Assembly (NCBI GenBank): GCA_002366835.1
Contig: DFBZ01000147.1
Span: forward strand, 13,649 to 77,648
DNA from: Gammaproteobacteria bacterium UBA3067
Lineage (GTDB): Bacteria; Pseudomonadota; Gammaproteobacteria; Pseudomonadales; UBA3067
DNA length: 64,000 nt
Direction: 5' to 3'
This document shows, one piece after another, positions 20,450 through 45,530 of the stretch (positions are counted from its first letter, which is position 1; every line of letters begins with the position of its first letter). The notes under the pieces are model-generated. The model saw only the letters and a list, made by a program, of their open reading frames with translations, had not been told where the DNA came from and made no database searches. The translations under genes and the position numbers were made by a program.

Positions 20450-21337
20450 TTGAAACAGCCCTCCATACAGTGTATTCAAATTGGTGACTTACCTGCCCTG
20501 CAAATCAATAACCAACTGGCAAGTGCCGTGGTGCTTCTCCAAGGCGGGCAGCTTATTCAATTCCAAGCCCATGGCGAAGCACCTCTTTTATGGGAAAACC
20601 CTGATGCACAATTCCAACGAGGTAAGGCTGTGCGAACTGGCATTCCCATTTGCTGGCCCTGGTTTGGTGACCTGAACTGTAACCCGCAGACGGTGCAAAA
20701 TGAATTTCAAAAATTGCCCACTCAGCCCGCCCACGGATTTGCCCGCACTGGCACTTGGGGACTTTACGATTATAATATGCATGAGGCAGGCACCACCCTT
20801 CGCCTCAGATTGCTCGACACCCCCTGCCCTCTTCATTTAAGCCTGGAGGTAGAGATTGGTGAAAAGCTGTCTCTCCGGCTAATCACCCATAACCCGTCTC
20901 AGAACAGCGTTCATTTTAGTCAGGCCTTACACAGCTACTTCCCCACGCAAAATATTTCAGAAACAAGCATTCACGGTTTGGATAATTGCGAATACCTGGA
21001 TGCTATGGATGGGTGGCAGAAAAAATACCAAACCGGCCCTATCTCCTTTTCTGAAGAAACCGATCGTGTGTATTTTGGCAGCGAGGGAGACTTAAAAATT
21101 ATGCGGGGTAATAGGCAAAAAGGGGAATCGCAAAATACCCTGATAGAAAGCTCCGGCAGCGCATCCTGTGTTGTCTGGAACCCCTGGAAAGAAAAAGCCG
21201 CACGCCTTTCACAATTCAGCCCAGAGGCATATCAATCCATGCTTTGCGTGGAAACTGCAAATGCTGCTTCCGACTCAATAAAACTGGCAAAGGGTGCAAC
21301 GCACACACTAAGCCTATCCCTCAGCAGGCTTTCTTAA
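20450..21337 (+). CDS. D-hexose-6-phosphate mutarotase (aldose 1-epimerase family, YeaD-like)
   Basis: VRTGIPICWPWFGD and HGFAR motifs. 295 aa with a TTG start. Confidence 0.75.
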   Translation: MKQPSIQCIQIGDLPALQINNQLASAVVLLQGGQLIQFQAHGEAPLLWENPDAQFQRGKAVRTGIPICWPWFGDLNCNPQTVQNEFQKLPTQPAHGFARTGTWGLYDYNMHEAGTTLRLRLLDTPCPLHLSLEVEIGEKLSLRLITHNPSQNSVHFSQALHSYFPTQNISETSIHGLDNCEYLDAMDGWQKKYQTGPISFSEETDRVYFGSEGDLKIMRGNRQKGESQNTLIESSGSASCVVWNPWKEKAARLSQFSPEAYQSMLCVETANAASDSIKLAKGATHTLSLSLSRLS

Positions 21338-21418
21338 GGCCTGACTGACAAACAATAAATGAAAGGCTGACCCATCAATACAACAGAACGAATAAAAGAA
21401 GACACCCTGTTTTTTAAA

Positions 21419-21510
21419 GCCGGATAAAAAGACCAACCCTAACTCTACAACCTCTTCTTCATACCCTTCCTCAGGTCGCTGCCGTTTTATCCTTTTCTTG
21501 TTGCTTTTTA
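21419..21510. repeat. Imperfect direct repeat, copy A (pairs with 23529..23640)
   Basis: GGATAAAAAGACCAACCCTAACTCTACAACC..TTCTTC..CCTTCCT..CCTTTTCTTGTTGC aligns with copy B in three blocks. Identity was judged by eye. Confidence 0.4.
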
Positions 21511-21618
21511 TTGGCTGTATGTTAATTATCTGACAAGAAATTTTTCTAATTCCCTCGCTTAAACGGTATTATTTTCCTCTAGGTAACATGTATATTAACG
21601 GAGTATTTTGCTAGCACA

Positions 21619-21665
21619 TCCGGTTAATTTTTGAACTGGTTTATTTTTGTTCGAAATTAACCGGA
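21619..21665. promoter_or_regulatory. Perfect 12-bp inverted repeat about 100 bp upstream of the SOR-like gene; candidate operator or structured element
   Basis: TCCGGTTAATTT (21619-21630) and AAATTAACCGGA (21654-21665), separated by a 23-nt spacer. Confidence 0.35.
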
Positions 21666-21765
21666 AACCAGAGGCTGCTTATCCCTGCCATTAGGCTCAT
21701 ATTTATACGGCACTGCACCTATGCCGGAACTAAAGAAATTTACAACAAAACTATGGAGAATAATT

Positions 21766-22173
21766 ATGAATAGAAGAAATTTTATACGTGTATCGACATT
21801 AGGTGCTGCCACCGGAATGATGGCACCAACGGTTGCCTTAGCTTCCACTGTAAGTATGGCCGGTGGAGTTTATTACACTAAGGAAGCTCCAGGCCGCTGG
21901 AGTAAAAAAATTGAAAGTCATTTACCAATAATTGAAGTTTCAGGGAAAAAAATACAAGTAACAACTCCCCATGGCATGACTGGATATGATCACTATATTG
22001 TCAAGCACATGATACTAAATGATAAGTTTGAATTCATTGATGAGAAGATGTTTGACCCGACTCAGGATAAAGCCCCAATATCTCAGTTTGACCTTGGTAA
22101 TTACTCAGGTCGAATACATGTTTTGAGTGCCTGCAACAAACATGACACCTGGTTAAATATGGCTGACATATAA
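21766..22173 (+). CDS. Tat-exported superoxide-reductase-like (desulfoferrodoxin ferrous-iron-binding domain) protein
   Basis: Twin-arginine signal MNRRNFIRVSTLGAATGMMAPTVALA, with GGAG 7 nt upstream of the ATG. SOR centre-II ligand motifs are present: ESHLPIIE (compare EKHVPVIE), PHGMTGYDHYIVKH (compare HPNTTEHHIRYI) and SACNKHDTW (compare YCNIHGLW). Confidence 0.75.
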   Translation: MNRRNFIRVSTLGAATGMMAPTVALASTVSMAGGVYYTKEAPGRWSKKIESHLPIIEVSGKKIQVTTPHGMTGYDHYIVKHMILNDKFEFIDEKMFDPTQDKAPISQFDLGNYSGRIHVLSACNKHDTWLNMADI

Positions 22174-22180
22174 AACATAA

Positions 22181-22226
22181 CTAATAAGGGGGGGGGTCGC
22201 GCATTGCTGAAGCTCCCCCTTATTAG
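22181..22226. terminator. Strong bidirectional stem-loop between the convergent SOR-like and ankyrin genes
   Basis: CTAATAAGGGGG (22181-22192) pairs with CCCCCTTATTAG (22215-22226). The left arm runs into a G9 homopolymer. Confidence 0.65.
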
Positions 22227-22311
22227 TTGAATTCAAGAGTTGTTTTCTCTTAAGTAGGTCCATTCTTTTTAAGTAGTTCTAATTTACTTTATTAGGCAAC
22301 AACTGCACCCA

Positions 22312-23097
22312 TCAACGGGTGGCTTTCAGTAATTCAATAATTTTAGTATTTCCCTGGTTTTCCGCCCACATCAAGGCGGTTTTACCATTCTTGTCTTGAA
22401 TCTTTGTATCGGCACCATATAACATTAACAAATTCACTATATCGTCGTGTCCTTCATATGCGCCTGCAATTATAGCGGTCCAGCCATCTTTGTCATTTGG
22501 TATGGCATCAATATTTGCGTTGTTTTCTAATAACATTTTGGCGATCGAATAAAAACCATATTTTGATGCAAACATGAGCGATGTCCTTCCAAGTTTGTTT
22601 TTTGCATTTACATTCGCACCGCTTTTAATCAATACAGAAGCAACCTCTTCATTTCCTTCGGCAACAGAGATCATGAGCGGCGTCCATCCAATGCCGATTT
22701 GAGTATTACGAGTACTACTTGTTGAATATTCAACGTTTACCCCTGCATTGATCATCGCCTCAACCAAACGATGATCTCCAAATTTAGCCGCCGCAAACAG
22801 CAGAGATGCACTCCGTTTATTTATCTCTAATTCATAATCCATTAGAAGGCTTTGACATGCATCTTCTTCCGGTGTCTTGGCACATATCCCCGCTACTACT
22901 TGACAGTAATAATGAGCAACAAGCTGCGGGGTTTCCTTACCATCTGTCTTTGCCCTTTTTTCTGCCGATGGCATACATGCTTCATAAATCAACTGTTTAG
23001 TCGTGGGCTTACGAGGTGACTGACTAGGAGGCGCTGTTGTACAACCGCTTATTAATAGAAAAATGGATAGTGTAAAAATTAACGTGTAGTTGTTCAC
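22312..23097 (-). CDS. Ankyrin-repeat lipoprotein
   Basis: GTG start preceded by AAAGGAGAG gives MNNYTLIFTLSIFLLISGC (lipobox). At least 4 ankyrin repeats, e.g. GWTPLMISVAEGNEEVASVLIKSGANVNAKN and GKTALMWAENQGNTKIIELL. The longest ORF reaches 23142. Confidence 0.85.
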   Translation of the reverse strand: MNNYTLIFTLSIFLLISGCTTAPPSQSPRKPTTKQLIYEACMPSAEKRAKTDGKETPQLVAHYYCQVVAGICAKTPEEDACQSLLMDYELEINKRSASLLFAAAKFGDHRLVEAMINAGVNVEYSTSSTRNTQIGIGWTPLMISVAEGNEEVASVLIKSGANVNAKNKLGRTSLMFASKYGFYSIAKMLLENNANIDAIPNDKDGWTAIIAGAYEGHDDIVNLLMLYGADTKIQDKNGKTALMWAENQGNTKIIELLKATR

Positions 23098-23528
23098 AAT
23101 TACTCTCCTTTTGTGTTCTCTTTCACCGTCATGGTAGAACACCGCGTTGCCGAGGTGCCCCCATATAGATCCGGACGTACGGAATTACCGCATCCGTCTC
23201 TTCAATAGTATCGTTGCCCGTGTAAAGCACAGAACCTCAATACCAATCCAAAGCAATGAGTCGTTTGCTCACGCGCATGGGTTGAATTCCGAAATATCTT
23301 AACATCTCTTTCACCCCTGACTAGGTGCAACTACGCCGCTGACTTCTTCGGTTTAACCATTTGTACAGGCTATGAAATATATGGCTAAGACAAAAAATAT
23401 AAAGACAGCCACTATATTATGAATAAAACAATTGGGCGTAATAGATAAAAGAGCAGTAACTACCGGGTAGTCATCAACAAAAAAACAAAGAAAGCATCAC
23501 ACCACAAGCAGGTGATCTACCTTTTAGC

Positions 23529-23640
23529 ACGGGATAAAACGACCCAGCCTAACCGTACAGCTTCTTCGAGCCCCCCTCCTTTAATCCAAGCAACAGATTC
23601 TTCGGCATTCCCCTTTTCAGATTGTTGCCTATTTTTCTTT
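23529..23640. repeat. Imperfect direct repeat, copy B (pairs with 21419..21510)
   Basis: GGGATAAAACGACCCAGCCTAACCGTACAGC..TTCTTC..CCCCTCCT..CCTTTTCAGATTGTTGC. Lies inside a dubious 81-aa reverse ORF. Confidence 0.4.
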
Positions 23641-23967
23641 TCCCTGAATTGCTCTAGAGAAGAAAGCGTACCCGCTGCATAAAAAAAGTACTTCTGGAAG
23701 TGAGAAGCGGAATCAATCCAGTTTTCAGGCTGATTACCTAAACGGCGCAAAATTGGCGGCAAATGGCTGTAGATAGCCCCGCGCTTATCTTCTCGAAGAG
23801 TGCCCCCGCCCTATCCACCAACTCAAAATAATCCTGCCGCGTAAATGGGATCCCTAATCAAGTTCGCTCTCAAGTGGCGAAATAAAGCCCCTACAATTTT
23901 ATCCAGACCTGTATTGCTCCTTCCGCTATAATGCCGTCCCCAAGATTATTCGCTCGTAGCCAGAACC

Positions 23968-25170
23968 ATGAACAACGACCTTCAACGCCTACAACCCTAC
24001 CCTTTTGAAAAGCTCAACGCGCTGAAAGCTACGGTGTCACCACCGAGTGGGCTTTCTCCCATTTTGCTATCCATTGGTGAACCCAAGCACGCTGCACCTG
24101 CCCATGTATTGCAGGCACTCAGTGATGCCTTGCCCAAAGTCGCTCACTACCCCGCCACAAAGGGTTCGCCAGAATTGCGAGAGAGTATCGCAAGTTGGCT
24201 CATACAACGTTTTAACCTTGCTGCTGATTCGATAGATTCTGAACGGCATGTTTTGCCCGTTAGTGGCACTCGCGAGGCCCTGTTCGCCTTTGCGCAAGCG
24301 GTGGTCAACCGTGAGGCTGTGGCAAGTGGGGCGAAGCCCTATATCATGATGCCCAACCCGTTTTACCAGATCTACGAAGGGGCGACCTTTTTGGCAGGCG
24401 CAACGCCCTTTTACTTGCCAAACAAAGGCATACAGCCGGATTTCGACAGTATTGACGAGGAAAGCTGGTCGAAGTGCCAGCTACTGTTTATCTGCTCGCC
24501 CTACAACCCCACTGGCGCGGTGATGCAGTTTGAAACCTTGAAGAAACTAATTGCTCTGGCCGATAAGCATGACTTTATCATTGCCAGTGACGAATGTTAT
24601 TCCGAGATTTATTTAGATGAATCCCAGCCGCCCATGGGCTTGCTAGAAGCCTGCGCAAAACTTGGTCGCCATCAATATGAACGCTGCGTGGTGTTTCACA
24701 GCCTGTCGAAACGCTCAAACCTACCGGGCTTGCGCTCGGGATTTGTGGCCGGTGATGCCAGCGTTCTGAAGGACTTTTTGCTCTATCGCACTTACCACGG
24801 TTGCGCGATGCCTTTGCATCATCAAATCGCCAGCATTCACGCCTGGAATGATGAAAGTCACGTTATCGAAAACCGCACTCTTTACCGAGAGAAATTTGCG
24901 CAATTTCAAGCGATAGCGGGGCAGCAGTTGTCGTTGGAGATACCGGAAGGCGGTTTTTATTTTTGGGCACAAACGCCCATTGATGATATCGAGTTTGCAC
25001 AAAAACTTTACGTGAGAGAAAACATTACCGTTTTGCCGGGCCAATACCTTTCTCGGGAAATAGACGGCGAGAACCCTGGCAAAAATCGCATTCGCATGGC
25101 CTTGGTTGCCAGCACCGAAGAGTGCGCTGAAGCGGCACAACGCATTCAACGTTTTATGAGTACGATATAA
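23968..25170 (+). CDS. dapC: Class I/II aminotransferase, probable succinyldiaminopimelate transaminase
   Basis: 400 aa with the PLP-lysine region SLSKRSNLPGLRSG. Clustered with dapD and dapE. A TATAAT hexamer at 23927-23932 could be its -10 element. Confidence 0.75.
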   Translation: MNNDLQRLQPYPFEKLNALKATVSPPSGLSPILLSIGEPKHAAPAHVLQALSDALPKVAHYPATKGSPELRESIASWLIQRFNLAADSIDSERHVLPVSGTREALFAFAQAVVNREAVASGAKPYIMMPNPFYQIYEGATFLAGATPFYLPNKGIQPDFDSIDEESWSKCQLLFICSPYNPTGAVMQFETLKKLIALADKHDFIIASDECYSEIYLDESQPPMGLLEACAKLGRHQYERCVVFHSLSKRSNLPGLRSGFVAGDASVLKDFLLYRTYHGCAMPLHHQIASIHAWNDESHVIENRTLYREKFAQFQAIAGQQLSLEIPEGGFYFWAQTPIDDIEFAQKLYVRENITVLPGQYLSREIDGENPGKNRIRMALVASTEECAEAAQRIQRFMSTI

Positions 25171-41948: not shown

Positions 41949-42029
41949 AGCTAACGGGTTCACCTTTAGCTGGGAAGTGCTTACCTCCAAATGCCATAAA
42001 AAATAAAACGAAGCAGTTTTATTAGGGCC

Positions 42030-42272
42030 TAACAGGCTGTTGAAATTCGCTGAATTGAGTCAGGTGCAAGGCAAAATTAAGCGAAAAGGCGGACGACTCC
42101 ATGGATGGGGGAGGTAGAGCGACGCAGGATGCCAAAGCCGAGTTTACAGGTGTAAATGAGCAGAGCCTGCCCCGTGAAACGTTTTGGGTACTTTGAGTGC
42201 GATTTTACCGAAAGTAGGCGCCTTAAGCGACGCCGCAGATGGCCAAGTCAGTAGAATTTCAACAGCCTGCTA
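42030..42272. mobile_element. MITE-like element, family 1, full-length copy
   Basis: Terminal inverted repeats ACAGGCTGTTGAAATT / AATTTCAACAGCCTGC flanked by TA on both sides. About 243 bp with no ORF. Confidence 0.7.
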
Positions 42273-42277
42273 AAGAA

Positions 42278-43546: not shown

Positions 43547-44410
43547 ATGCGTATAAAAACATTAGCCGTGGCCTCGGCTGCCGGTGGTCGCCATCGGGGG
43601 GGCCGCGAAGCAGCGCAGTATTACTTTGAGCACTACTTAAAACAAAAGCCCTATTTTAGCTGCGGCATTAAACAGTTTAGCTCCCACCGACATTACAAAC
43701 TCGGTCTCCTTTTTCGCCAACTACACCACGCAACGCAACGCTGCATTCAAAACAAGCAGCCTTTTTTGGTGATCGAGGGAGATCACTCCAGCGCCATCGG
43801 CACATGGTCTGGCGTCATGGATGGCCTTGAGCCAGACCAAAGCCTCGGACTTATCTGGCTCGATGCCCATATGGACGCCAACACCTTTCACAGCAGCCCC
43901 ACTGGCAACCTGCACGGCATGCCGGTTTCAGCATTGCTCGGCACGCAAGATAAACGTTTACAACGGCTCTACCCTGGCAAGAGGCACCTTCGCCCTGAAA
44001 ACCTTATCCTGATTGGTTTGCGTAGCTACGAAGATGGCGAAAAAGCGCTGCTTGACTCCTTGGGCGTGGAGTATTACACCATCGACTCTCTGAAAACCAA
44101 GGGCTCTCTGGAAACCATACTCTCGCAGTCCGTTAAAAAGTTATCCGCGCGTTGTAGCAAGCTCGGCCTCAGCATTGATATGGATGCCATTGATCCCCGC
44201 GATGCCCCAGCAGTCGCCACTCCCGTGGCAAATGGAATAAGGGGGGAGGCGCTGGTTCAAGCCTTGACCAAGGCCCTGCAGAACACCCAGCTCTGCGGCC
44301 TGGAGATTAGCGAATATGTGCCCATAAAAGACCCTGACAAACGCACACTGAAGCTGATGTCCCGGCTTGTAAACGCGGTTTACCCTAGCAGGCTGTTGAA
44401 ATCCTACTGA
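43547..44410 (+). CDS. Arginase/agmatinase/formimidoylglutamase-family ureohydrolase
   Basis: Mn-ligand motifs EGDHSSAIG, WLDAHMDANT and SIDMDAIDP. The last about 8 codons and the stop lie inside MITE copy 2. Confidence 0.8.
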   Translation: MRIKTLAVASAAGGRHRGGREAAQYYFEHYLKQKPYFSCGIKQFSSHRHYKLGLLFRQLHHATQRCIQNKQPFLVIEGDHSSAIGTWSGVMDGLEPDQSLGLIWLDAHMDANTFHSSPTGNLHGMPVSALLGTQDKRLQRLYPGKRHLRPENLILIGLRSYEDGEKALLDSLGVEYYTIDSLKTKGSLETILSQSVKKLSARCSKLGLSIDMDAIDPRDAPAVATPVANGIRGEALVQALTKALQNTQLCGLEISEYVPIKDPDKRTLKLMSRLVNAVYPSRLLKSY

Positions 44411-44530
44411 CTTGGCCACCTACGGCGTTAAAATCGCACTCAAAGTGCTCATTTACACGTGTAAACTCCGCTTTTTCGCTTGATTTTGCCTTGTATGTGG
44501 CTCAATTCAGCGAATTTCAACCGCCTGCTA
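44386..44530. mobile_element. MITE-like element, family 1, internally deleted copy in inverted orientation
   Basis: TIRs GCAGGCTGTTGAAAT / ATTTCAACCGCCTGC flanked by TA. Its interior matches both ends of the 42030..42272 copy in reverse complement. Confidence 0.7.
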
Positions 44531-45530
44531 GCAGTGAAAACAAATTTTTGGGGTCTTCCAATTCAGGGATCAAATCCATTTCCTGGCCAAGCTGATGCTG
44601 CTCAGTTAAATCATGCACTAAGCGCAGAATGGAGTAATCTTCCAGCGCAAAACCTACAGAATCAAACAGCGTGATCTCGTGGTCACCTTCACGCCCTTGT
44701 TTCGTTCCGTTTACCAGCTCCCACAACTCAGCGTGAACCAGCGAGGCATCACCCTGCTGGATTTCCCCCTCTATTAAACTTTGAGGAAGATATTCCACCA
44801 CAACGCGAGCGCGATGCAGCATATCCAAATCAATCTCCGTCTTACCGGGGCAGTCACCACCCATGGCGTGGATATGGCTACCCGCCTGAAATTGCTCAAA
44901 GGTGGCAATGCGCTGGGTTGTTTTGGCGGCCGTTGCAGTAATCACCATATACGTATTGGCAATCGCCTCCGCCACACTGTCACAGCGCACCAAGTCGAAA
45001 CCCAGTGGCTTAAGGTTTGAAGAGAATTTATCCATCGCCTTATTATCCACATCATAGCAATATACGGTCTTAATGGGCCGCACACAGCTCATAGCAATCA
45101 CCTGAAACTCTGCCTGAGCACCCGTTCCGATGATCGCTAGGGAGTCACAGTCCTCCCGCGCCATATAACGCGCACCCAGAGCGGCGACAGCGGCGGTTCT
45201 GATGGCTGTCAAGAGAGTCATCTCACTCAGTAAAATAGGGTAACCATTGCTCACTTCAATCAGCTGCCCCAGTGCCACCACAGATAAATCCCCTTTTAAG
45301 GGGTTGCCAGGGTGTCCATTCACAAGTTTATAGCTAAACAGCTGTTCGTCGGAGCATGGCATCAACTCAATAACACCGTGGGGGTAATGTGCCGCATAGC
45401 GGGGAGAAAACTGAAACTGATCCCAGCGGGAAAAATCTTGCTGGAGGTAATCAATCACCGAGTTAAAAAAGGGCTTAAGGCCCACCGTCTGAACCAGCTG
45501 CTGTATATCGGAGATGGTAATAACTTTCAT
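44517..45530 (-). CDS. Ornithine cyclodeaminase/mu-crystallin family protein
   Basis: 337 aa with the Rossmann motif IIGTGAQAEFQ and family-typical ends. The stop and last codons (..LLAGG) lie inside MITE copy 2. Confidence 0.82.
   Translation of the reverse strand: MKVITISDIQQLVQTVGLKPFFNSVIDYLQQDFSRWDQFQFSPRYAAHYPHGVIELMPCSDEQLFSYKLVNGHPGNPLKGDLSVVALGQLIEVSNGYPILLSEMTLLTAIRTAAVAALGARYMAREDCDSLAIIGTGAQAEFQVIAMSCVRPIKTVYCYDVDNKAMDKFSSNLKPLGFDLVRCDSVAEAIANTYMVITATAAKTTQRIATFEQFQAGSHIHAMGGDCPGKTEIDLDMLHRARVVVEYLPQSLIEGEIQQGDASLVHAELWELVNGTKQGREGDHEITLFDSVGFALEDYSILRLVHDLTEQHQLGQEMDLIPELEDPKNLFSLLAGG

Follow-up and report, generated by a model that had tools for sequence, protein, structure and literature searches.

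A probable chromosomal integron remnant with transposase and group II intron fossils between yeaD and dapC

The A/T-rich patch between yeaD and dapC is probably the decayed remnant of a chromosomal integron that carries fossils of a transposase and of a group II intron and that was shuffled by recombination between relics. We propose that this interval was the site of a sedentary chromosomal integron, with intI directly upstream of dapC and the array extending towards yeaD. Cargo genes would have arrived through integron-type cassette capture, and an IS-like element and a group II intron may then have invaded the array, with one IS copy landing inside intI, the situation seen in the relative L099. 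In the window (the whole 64-kb stretch of DNA analyzed here), the platform would now be dead following the deletion of intI and attI. The cargo that presumably remains is a unit composed of a transposase relic, a Tat-SOR-like gene and an attC-like site, together with a reversed ankyrin lipoprotein gene. The dispersed relic copies would have provided the substrates of ordinary homologous recombination, leading to the deletion, the insertion and probably the inversion of blocks. The segment holds nothing mobile today.

The genes encoding the YeaD-like aldose-1-epimerase and DapC are separated by 2630 bp (Table 1), in agreement with the original prediction of about 2.6 kb between two housekeeping genes. 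Only two intact genes are found in this gap, the Tat/desulfoferrodoxin-like ORF and the ankyrin lipoprotein gene, and we confirmed that they converge on a strong hairpin (22179-22228). The A/T-richness that had been suspected by eye was also recovered, with a G+C content of 41.3% for the segment versus 45.9% for the whole window. The SOR-like gene (G+C 0.382, GC3 0.331; z = -2.7 and -2.3) and the ankyrin gene (0.408 and 0.357; z = -1.8 and -1.9) present the lowest and second lowest values of 50 ORFs, and cargo of low G+C content relative to its flanks is observed in the window and in the related contigs L101 and L187. About 870 bp had been described as lacking a credible gene. This stretch indeed contains no intact gene, but it is 825 bp long (23143-23967) and consists of recognizable relics: the 3' relic of the group II intron, the transposase relic and the old intI-dapC spacer. 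No tRNA or tandem repeat was found, and the search of a phage collection yielded no match.

Table 1. Features of the yeaD-dapC interval and its flanks (window coordinates).
Feature	Position	Strand	Evidence and remarks
YeaD-like aldose-1-epimerase	20450-21337	+	Left flank of the interval
Left repeat R1	21341-21504	-	nhmmer 46.9 bits, E = 2e-14, profile positions 208-419
Leader/upstream region of the SOR-like gene, part of the relic-SOR-attC unit	21505-21765	+	~80% identical to L186 378-658, continuous with the ORF
Tat-signal, desulfoferrodoxin-domain (SOR-like) gene, 135 aa	21766-22173	+	Pfam Desulfoferrodox 24.0 bits (cut-off 22.2)
attC-like palindrome ACATAAC...GTTGAAT, 58 nt	22175-22232	+	Starts 2 nt past the SOR-like stop codon
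Ankyrin-repeat lipoprotein gene, 261 aa	22312-23097	-	Pfam Ank_2, 171 bits; gene call
Group II intron 3' relic	23128-23391	-	blastn 70-79% to two Catenovulum replicons
3' untranslated end of the right relic	23392-23549	-	Element terminus ~23392; profile match runs to 23406
Right repeat, coding relic, C-terminal ~1/3 of a Y1/RAYT-like transposase-like gene	23550-23856	-	Profile 476.8 bits; six-frame reading; family alignment
Crossover interval, recombination between relic copies R2 and R3 of strain ERZ27237536	23605-23634		Variant columns
Last base and stop codon (TAA, 23855-23857) of the lost intI, then intI-dapC spacer	23854-23967	+	Homology to L187 and L101 begins at 23854 (CTAATCA...)
DapC	23968-25170	+	Right flank; TIGR03538, 637 bits

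Relatives present an integron at this very locus. The contig L187, which is 90% identical to the window at the DNA level from 23854 onwards, encodes a full-length IntI (TIGR02249, 434.9 bits versus a cut-off of 265) that ends at the equivalent of window position 23854. This intact intI is located directly upstream of dapC. Three small ORFs of low G+C content come next on the other strand, and behind each of them lies an ATAAC...GTTAT hairpin that contains an unpaired spacer and whose 5' arm presents single-base bulges; one cassette of this integron encodes an OXA-like class D beta-lactamase. The contig L101 possesses a frameshifted IntI (323.9 bits against the same model and cut-off) and two attC-like hairpins, and a third attC adjoining its yeaD (1135-1262) was not supported (z = -1.2). 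In L099, the intI fragments are interrupted by the same transposase relic as the one carried by the window. Searching the whole window by tblastn with the IntI of L101 and L187 returned no match.

In total, five different contents fill the yeaD-dapC interval in related contigs, and the variable interval is delimited by the stop codon of yeaD (21337) and that of the former intI (23855-23857), the latter lying past the right repeat. The synteny check suggested in the original prediction thus revealed that the interval is not conserved, and the segment can be considered acquired or variable DNA in view of the disrupted gene ends, the deviant composition and the content that differs among relatives. 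The predicted horizontally acquired insertion is upheld in this sense, but it is not bounded by the repeats. GTDB genomes were uninformative for synteny because they are too distant: the best DapC match among the loci listed is 64% identical, and neither yeaD nor nhaA was found within 10 kb upstream of dapC in any of the 80 GTDB loci among those listed. Finally, the SOR unit has the opposite orientation to the arrays of L187 and L101, and its placement therefore requires either an inversion that was not observed or the acquisition of the unit from a different array.

The hairpin that follows the SOR-like gene had been interpreted as a terminator; it turned out to belong to a family of attC-like sites. 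The attC boxes were defined as R'' = RYYYAAC and R' = GTTRRRY around an imperfect palindrome just 3' of a cassette ORF, and detection was ad hoc, based on a scan for AAC...GTT hairpins and on a profile of the site family rather than on covariance-model scoring. Both approaches identified a single attC-like site in 21250-24050. This site aligns with the second attC of L101, with the site that follows the SOR ORF on L186 and with a site of L091. The family profile scores 50.3 bits on the plus strand versus 8.3 bits on the minus strand, with one copy in 64 kb. As DNA, the hairpin has a folding energy of -15.8 kcal/mol (z = -6.0), and its stem is perfectly paired over 16 bp from AAC/GTT inwards, lacking both an unpaired spacer and extrahelical bases. 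In functional attC sites, in contrast, the central spacer is unpaired and the R''-L'' arm bears 2-3 extrahelical bases (PMC2727003), and such features are present in the sites of L101 (3389-3443) and L187 (3378-3443 and 4234-4319). The palindrome probably also acts as a bidirectional terminator, and it could be merely a terminator descended from an attC. A simple terminator scan did not flag this hairpin because its loop exceeds the length allowed by the scan rule. We also considered that the hairpins might be an abundant REP family and rejected this possibility: besides the single copy in 64 kb, none was detected in ~100 kb of other DNA of the close lineage except for the four founder sites.

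The imperfect direct repeat was supported statistically. Its first block, for which about three quarters of the positions had been estimated to match, presents 35 of 46 identical positions (76%) between 21412-21457 and 23522-23567. The Smith-Waterman score of 24 lies far above chance (maximum of 16.5 in 300 shuffles and of 20 in 377 genomic control pieces), and the core motif of the repeat occurs twice in 64 kb where no occurrence is expected. Using an nhmmer profile built from eight copies of the family found elsewhere in related DNA, we detected the left and right copies and no further match in the window. The repeat is longer than first reported because the profile match to the left copy covers 21504 to 21341 in this direction. 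With internal deletions, the copies measure ~165 nt on the left and ~250 nt on the right.

The two repeats are independent relics of an IS-like (Y1/RAYT-like) transposase gene, which supports the earlier suggestion that they represent duplicated 3' ends of a disrupted gene. R1, which adjoins the yeaD stop codon, corresponds to the last ~100 nt of the transposase-like gene, with an internal deletion of ~38 nt, plus ~115 nt of 3' untranslated end; more complete counterparts are found on L186 and below a near-full gene on L101. The right relic retains its natural stop codon (TAG, 23550-23552) and presents frameshifts near 23800 and near 23575. Homology to the window stops at 23392 in two other contexts (L098 and L099), and the homology of L097 stops at 23406, which is the end of that contig. 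The similar reverse-strand peptide tails noticed earlier do exist, but they are out-of-frame read-through: the true reading frame of the family ends in ...WIKGKGASKKLYG*, at this same TAG. Both these tails and the 81-aa ORF at 23517-23762 are annotation artefacts.

We identified 20 short ORFs related to the right relic (65-92% identity). Its full-length homologues, at 34-40% identity, are 324-356 aa long, are annotated as "transposase" and occur in several copies per replicon. Across the catalytic core, these proteins resemble Pfam Y1_Tnp and NCBIfam REP_Tyr_transpos at scores that remain under the curated cut-offs (19.9 bits versus 23 and 38 versus 80, respectively). The family also presents a C-terminal extension of ~120 aa that has no Pfam model and is the sole part remaining in the window; searching Pfam and NCBIfam with the relic peptide, which holds this extension only, yielded no match. 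All of the more than 20 family copies of this lineage are truncated and the 5' end was never seen, and relics of the family are also present at other, unrelated loci. No target-site duplication was visible at the relics. R1 and the R2 copy of L084 are truncated within ~5 nt of one point, at profile position ~205. We found no site-specific explanation for this common truncation point and treated it as a fragile A-rich spot or a coincidence.

The possibility that the repeats are themselves attC sites was discarded. The minus-strand sequences GTTAGGC, GTTAAGT and GTTAGGG located at the point of divergence between strains correspond to the stop codon of the transposase-like gene (GGT TAG/TAA). These sequences have no complementary R'' box, and neither the right nor the left repeat folds into a significant secondary structure (z = +0.7 and +0.8, respectively).

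Comparison with strain ERZ27237536, in which the link between contigs L084 and L002 is inferred rather than assembled, points to recombination between relics. This strain carries two ~100-nt relics, R2 and R3, that are 91% identical, and its presumed order is Ank, R2, HNH-like pseudogene, 192-aa gene, R3, dapC. In the window, all variant columns as far as 23604 have the R2 allele and all those from 23635 on have the R3 allele, leaving a crossover interval of 30 nt. The right relic of the window is, from these alleles, a clean R2/R3 recombinant relative to this other strain.

The intron relic comprises the C-terminal ~55 codons of a maturase, with an in-frame stop, followed by decayed domains V-VI. 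Its Catenovulum matches fall under a CDS annotated as "group II intron maturase-specific domain", and the maturase C-terminus is recovered by tblastn with 62% identity (E = 3e-19). The homologous stretch of L189 clears the Rfam model RF00029 (41.9 bits versus a cut-off of 40). The Rfam search of the islet gave no match, intron relic included, and the window's intron copy remained without a match even at E <= 10; this copy appears to be a decayed relic. The relic ends 30 nt upstream of the start of the ankyrin gene, a GTG preceded by AAGGAG. An alternative ankyrin ORF of 276 aa, starting at 23142, runs into the intron relic and is too long. The ankyrin gene is putative cassette-type cargo.

The SOR-like gene has 487 homologues and encodes a weak TAT signal. 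Its upstream region contains an 11-bp perfect inverted repeat, CCGGTTAATTT...AAATTAACCGG, read from the sequence at 21620-21664. On L186, the left relic travels with the SOR-like gene in the absence of the right copy, the unit lies beside an intI fragment, and homology to the window stops at the R' end of the site that follows the SOR ORF. This gene is best described as cassette-like cargo. Homologues at 76-79% identity occupy ordinary, non-integron contexts. The dN/dS ratio of 0.14 against L186 suggests that the gene is under purifying selection, and this signature makes it most likely that both intact genes are expressed and serve a useful function.

Several other scenarios could account for this segment. 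The direct orientation of the repeats, the low G+C content between them and the position of the right repeat at the 3' end of a gene relic would be expected from a small genomic island integrated site-specifically into the 3' end of a gene, with the repeats as attL and attR. We consider this scenario highly improbable, and the att-like scars of the original prediction find no support: the repeats are long (~165-250 nt) and 76% identical, with indels and no short exact core; their sequence family is present at unrelated loci; on L186, the association with the SOR-like gene involves the left copy alone; and neither an island-type integrase nor a tRNA gene, at which such islands often integrate, was found. 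Moreover, the borders are the stop codons of yeaD and intI, and the variable interval extends past the right repeat to 23853. It is also quite unlikely that two IS-like copies moved the SOR-like and ankyrin genes jointly, like a composite transposon, and then decayed. Two relics of the same family do flank the two genes, and a relic-gene-relic pattern is also found on L091, but neither relic retains the catalytic N-terminal two thirds, all copies seen in the lineage are incomplete and no target-site duplication is visible. In addition, the left relic points away from the far end of the cargo, and the cargo therefore occupies the place of the relic's own gene body. An intron relic further separates the ankyrin gene from the right relic, and the SOR unit of L186 carries the left relic only.

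Alternatively, the segment could be native DNA, in which ordinary lineage-specific genes of low G+C content surround a bidirectional terminator and IS debris has accumulated in a tolerant intergenic gap. The perfect stem devoid of attC-specific irregularities, the normal chromosomal contexts of SOR-like homologues elsewhere and the purifying selection on this gene are compatible with such a history. We nevertheless regard it as rather unlikely, since relatives harbor an integron integrase and attC-bearing cassettes at exactly the same position, the hairpin is homologous to sites of their arrays, the content of the interval is wholly different in every relative examined and none of the other ORFs, out of 50, has a G+C content as low as these two genes. 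A decayed, acquired and hypervariable integron remnant is the interpretation that we retain. A more speculative extension is that the RAYT-like Y1 family preferentially colonizes integron arrays, recognizes attC-type hairpins and is a specific agent of integron inactivation and array scrambling. Recognition of attC hairpins is conceivable because HUH enzymes act on folded single-stranded DNA, and a role in inactivation because one copy lies inside the intI of L099. In that case, a gene for a Tat-exported, superoxide-reductase-like protein would also be spreading in the form of an integron cassette; we would give this idea only a slim chance of being correct.

Under our favored interpretation of a decayed integron, a puzzling A/T-rich and seemingly gene-poor gap is explained as layered mobile DNA made of integron cassettes, an IS-like element and a group II intron. 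It offers a strain-level view of the death of a chromosomal integron, in which an IS strikes intI before recombination between relics removes and rearranges parts of the array. In genome annotations, the SOR-like and ankyrin genes are best treated as accessory, strain-variable cargo and not as core genes. The OXA-like cassette found in a close relative, whose integron is intact, deserves some attention with regard to reservoirs of resistance in the environment. The locus itself is an ordinary kind of bacterial genome scar, and nothing about it is conceptually new.

These features can be compared to those of known systems. Sedentary chromosomal integrons decay into intI pseudogenes and CALIN, which are attC clusters devoid of an integrase. 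Complete integrons possess intI, whose product carries a specific additional domain, and a CALIN requires two or more attC sites located within 4 kb on the same strand and no neighboring intI (Cury et al. 2016, PMC4889954). The window is not a complete integron because it lacks intI, and it is not a CALIN because one attC-like site was found. The proportion reported to contain IS is 23% for complete integrons and 12% for CALIN (PMC4889954). The relatives share with sedentary chromosomal integrons an intI at a fixed site, small cassettes in divergent orientation, attC hairpins that display R boxes, an unpaired spacer and bulges, cargo that is A/T-rich and for the most part of unknown function, TA modules and disruption by IS; the window differs by the perfect stem of its site and by a surviving cassette that is inverted relative to the arrays of its relatives.

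The transposase-like family resembles RAYT and IS200/IS605-type Y1 HUH transposases, which are recognized by their HUH and Tyr core, in the size of its homologues, their "transposase" annotation, their catalytic core and their copy number, but it differs by its sub-threshold scores, its ~120-aa extension and the lack of REP or hairpin ends in the flanks. Relative to an insertion sequence, the relics have a defined 3' terminus, whereas no intact transposase was seen in the lineage. Group IIC-attC introns are defined by insertion into the attC bottom strand and by the class C lineage of their intron-encoded protein, and those associated with integrons lie on the strand opposite to the cassette (Leon, Quiroga, Centron and Roy 2010, PMC3001079). 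The window keeps only the last 264 nt of its intron, the 5' end and the target attC are gone and 55 residues are too few to assign a class, but a group II intron fragment is found here inside a cassette-array remnant, and its strand, opposite to that of the SOR cassette, is consistent with the published orientation. Although the repeats involved here are relics and not intact IS, the R2/R3 mosaic, with its complete allele switch, resembles the deletion or insertion polymorphism that arises by homologous recombination between dispersed IS copies.

The window sequence is a metagenome contig (ENA ERZ778604 NODE_181) in which NhaA and a YeaD-like epimerase precede the interval, and DapC, an ArsC-family gene and DapD follow it. 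The original prediction described the interval as an A/T-rich islet with two convergent genes around a strong hairpin. These genes, a Tat-signal desulfoferrodoxin-domain ("SOR-like") gene and an ankyrin lipoprotein gene, do converge on a hairpin that folds as DNA at -15.8 kcal/mol (z = -6.0). The computed composition agreed with the prediction: G+C is 41.3% in the islet segment vs 45.9% in the window, and the two genes have the lowest two G+C and GC3 values among 50 ORFs. We found no tRNA genes or tandem repeats near the repeats. At its longest (276 aa), the ankyrin ORF would begin at the GTG at 23142, and its extra segment (23098-23142) runs into the 3' end of a group II intron relic; the true start is likely the GTG at 23097, which is preceded by AAGGAG and yields the lipoprotein signal MNNYTLIFTLSIFLLISGC.

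Coordinates and lengths of features in the window
Feature	Position	Strand	Length or match
NhaA	19247-20440	+	
YeaD-like aldose 1-epimerase	20450-21337	+	
Inverted repeat	21620-21664		11 bp, perfect
SOR-like ORF	21766-22173	+	
Hairpin	22179-22228		
Ankyrin lipoprotein	22312-23097	-	
825-bp stretch: ankyrin leader			30 nt
825-bp stretch: group II intron relic (ends 30 nt before ankyrin start)	23128-23391	-	264 nt
825-bp stretch: transposase relic			465 nt
825-bp stretch: intI stop and intI-dapC spacer			114 nt
DapC	23968-25170	+	TIGR03538, 637 bits
MITE-like element	42029-42275		
MITE-like element	44386-44531		

The imperfect direct repeat is real. Positions 21412-21457 and 23522-23567 are identical at 35 of 46 sites, with a local-alignment score of 24 against control maxima of 16.5 (300 shuffles) and 20 (377 pieces of the same window), and the 64 kb contain exactly two copies of the core motif, where none is expected. 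Secondary structure is not significant in either repeat copy (z = +0.7 and +0.8). The minus strand from 23856 to 23550 encodes a frameshifted ..GIPFTRQDYFELVD / REDKRGAI..PPILRRLG..ENWIDS..., to which a protein-collection search found 20 related short ORFs (81-197 aa, 65-92% identical, all metagenomic), none with a Pfam domain. Their alignment places the real C-terminus of the family at ...WIKGKGASKKLYG followed by a stop, which in the window is the TAG at 23550-23552. The similar peptide tails that had been noticed are thus alike but are not a genuine gene tail; they and the 81-aa ORF are out-of-frame read-through beyond the frameshift. Longer members of the family continue upstream into ..GRFWEGRFKSQALL..MAYVDLNPIRA.., and full-length relatives (324-356 aa, 34-40% identical, annotated "transposase") are found on Pseudoalteromonas, Catenovulum and Shewanella replicons. 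Because these relatives resemble Pfam Y1_Tnp (19.9 bits, under the curated cut-off of 23) and NCBIfam REP_Tyr_transpos (38 bits, under the curated cut-off of 80), the right repeat is placed within the last, C-terminal third of a RAYT/IS200-like gene that is now dead.

A DNA profile built from eight copies of this family has only two matches in the window, 23855->23406 (477 bits) and 21504->21341 (46.9 bits, E = 2e-14), so that the left repeat is a second, more eroded relic. What it retains is ~100 nt from the end of the gene, interrupted by a 38-nt deletion, and ~115 nt of 3' untranslated sequence; it reaches to within 3 nt of the yeaD stop. Homology to the window stops at 23392 in two other contexts (contigs L098 and L099), which defines the 3' terminus of the element; it stops at 23406 in L097 because that contig ends there. 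Of the two explanations first proposed for the repeats, a disrupted gene whose 3' end was duplicated is the right one, both being relics of one gene family; att-like scars bounding an insertion is wrong. GTTAGGC at the breakpoint was considered as an integron core site and rejected, as it is the stop codon. Separately, two independent relics (window 21504 and L084 ~9200, equivalent to window ~23650) are truncated within ~5 nt of each other at profile position about 205, in the A-rich stretch GAGCAATTCAGGGAAAAGAAAAATAGG. Several other copies of the family break or carry deletions at profile positions 175-250; we looked for a mechanism behind the common truncation point and found none.

Searching the islet against plasmids with blastn returned only 23127-23365, which is 70-79% identical to two Catenovulum replicons and falls there under CDSs annotated "group II intron maturase-specific domain". 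On its minus strand the window encodes the C-terminal end of a maturase, 62% identical over 55 aa (E = 3e-19) and interrupted by an in-frame stop, and then a decayed domain V-VI. Rfam RF00029 recognizes the homologous stretch in Catenovulum (41.9 bits, cut-off 40) and does not recognize the window copy. The stretch originally described as ~870 bp without a credible gene contains no intact gene; it measures 825 bp and resolves into the ankyrin leader, intron relic, transposase relic and intI stop with spacer. The counterpart of the intron relic in Catenovulum adriaticum pCadTS8_1 (175755-182006) is a truncated maturase ORF. Its neighbors are toxin-antitoxin pairs (BrnT/CopG, RelE/Phd), IS30 and a further "transposase", and the region has the look of one more cassette array.

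Among the matches listed for GTDB species representatives, the best DapC match was 64% identical (Oceanicoccus, Spongiibacteraceae, Pseudomonadales), so the lineage may lack a close reference genome, and no match listed from distant GTDB genomes had yeaD near dapC. These genomes are uninformative on the locus, and close metagenomic relatives are decisive. Contig L187, 90% identical in DNA to the window from 23854 onwards, carries a full-length integron integrase directly upstream of dapC (TIGR02249, 434.9 bits, cut-off 265), with a conserved palindrome on the attI side. On the opposite strand are three small ORFs (G+C 0.33-0.37 vs 0.50), which encode a 110-aa product, an OXA-like class D beta-lactamase and a GNAT. 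After each comes an ATAAC...GTTAT hairpin that has an unpaired spacer and, on its 5' arm, single-base bulges, the architecture described for attC sites (PMC2727003). Contig L101 (yeaD 90%, dapC 95% DNA identity) covers the entire interval in 5.4 kb. It has a Phd/PIN module and a near-full transposase-like gene (287 aa, short of ~74 residues at the N-terminus). Its Spherulin4 ORF and its DUF6988 ORF both have an AAC...GTT hairpin after them (z = -5.8 and -2.9), and its intI (323.9 bits) carries a frameshift. Contig L099 (96.7% identity to the window) has intI fragments, attI, a 213-aa ORF and a second relic copy, and there the window's transposase relic is inserted in the 3' part of intI. In all relatives the conserved chromosome ends on the left at the yeaD stop and resumes on the right at the last intI base plus TAA (window 23854-23857). 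An integron thus occupies the orthologous site in relatives, and no intI relic was found in the window. The prediction of acquired DNA was right: when synteny was compared, the contents of the interval differed among relatives.

The beta-lactamase cassette of L187 (3449-4207, minus strand; G+C 0.33, own attC) lies in an intact integron and scores 244.4 bits against bla_class_D_main, just below the cut-off of 250, with OXA-198-like as best subfamily match. It is a possible environmental reservoir cassette. A MITE-like element of ~145-245 nt with terminal inverted repeats CAGGCTGTTGAAATTC occurs twice in the window, in inverted orientation ~2.1 kb apart. A third copy (L100 3580-3671) lies directly 3' of the yeaD stop, at the contig end, in a 98%-identical strain from the same sample as L099.

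The window hairpin reads ACATAAC-TAATAAGG...CCTTATTA-GTTGAAT and begins 2 nt past the SOR-like stop. It aligns with the second attC of L101, the site after the SOR-like homologue in L186 and one site of contig L091, all of which lie 3' of an ORF and are oriented alike relative to it. A profile of these four sites scored 50.3 bits on the plus strand of the window vs 8.3 on the minus strand and gave no further copy in 64 kb; we therefore rejected an abundant REP. The low-coverage contig L186, from the same sample, is 80% identical to window 21409-22202 and carries, in this order, an intI fragment, a PIN-gene fragment, a more complete copy of the left relic, the SOR-like gene (84% aa identity) and the attC-like site, with similarity ending at the R' end of that site. 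Relic-SOR-attC is thus an old unit present in at least two arrangements, whose SOR-like gene is under purifying selection (dN/dS 0.14). The window site, inverted relative to the L187 and L101 arrays, has 16 uninterrupted bp with no unpaired spacer or extrahelical bases; it does not fit how a functional attC is defined structurally, and its present role may be only that of a bidirectional terminator.

SOR-like homologues at 76-79% identity also occur in ordinary contexts, with a cNMP-binding regulator, SOR and a methyltransferase. The family is large (487 matches, 135-140 aa, mostly marine gammaproteobacterial MAGs), and several sources name members "superoxide reductase". The protein has a twin-arginine signal (MNRRNFIR) and a desulfoferrodoxin domain just over the Pfam threshold; its predicted periplasmic location is unusual and may merit its own look. 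The inverted repeat CCGGTTAATTT(N23)AAATTAACCGG, ~100 nt upstream of the SOR-like start, is not kept as a palindrome in L186 and may be an operator, a terminator or a chance feature.

The locus is also a strain mosaic. Contigs L084 and L002 of sample ERZ27237536, whose physical link we infer, carry the same genes as the window. Between two copies of the relic, R2 and R3, they also have an HNH-like pseudogene with a frameshift and a gene for a 192-aa secreted protein. When these copies were aligned with the window, its allele was that of R2 at every variant column up to 23604 and that of R3 at every variant column from 23635 on, the signature of one crossover within 30 identical nt. Through it the HNH-like pseudogene and the 192-aa gene were either deleted or inserted. 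That the window lineage lost them is the favored reading, because the relic with the 192-aa gene is also found at the unrelated L091 locus, between two direct relic copies. That region (L091 9478-12520, from a different SCHR21-1 sample) is a nest of mobile-element debris: besides these relics of the right-repeat transposase family, it contains a classical RAYT-like gene (..TLWEGRYKS..NPARAGV..) in two relic copies and an attC-like site immediately 3' of an MMPL gene; no intI lies within 10 kb.

From these observations we infer that the SOR-like unit, and possibly also the reversed ankyrin gene, entered as integron cassettes. An IS-like element and the intron would then have invaded the active array, and recombination between relics would have eliminated intI and either inverted the block that survives or brought it in. 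The window lies outside the definitions of both "complete integron" and "CALIN" (PMC4889954), and its locus is best described as a sedentary chromosomal integron reduced to a degenerate remnant. The intron relic lies on the strand opposite the SOR cassette, as reported for group IIC-attC introns associated with integrons (PMC3001079). Every component of the locus belongs to a known kind of element, and IS-mediated decay of integrons is on record (PMC4889954).
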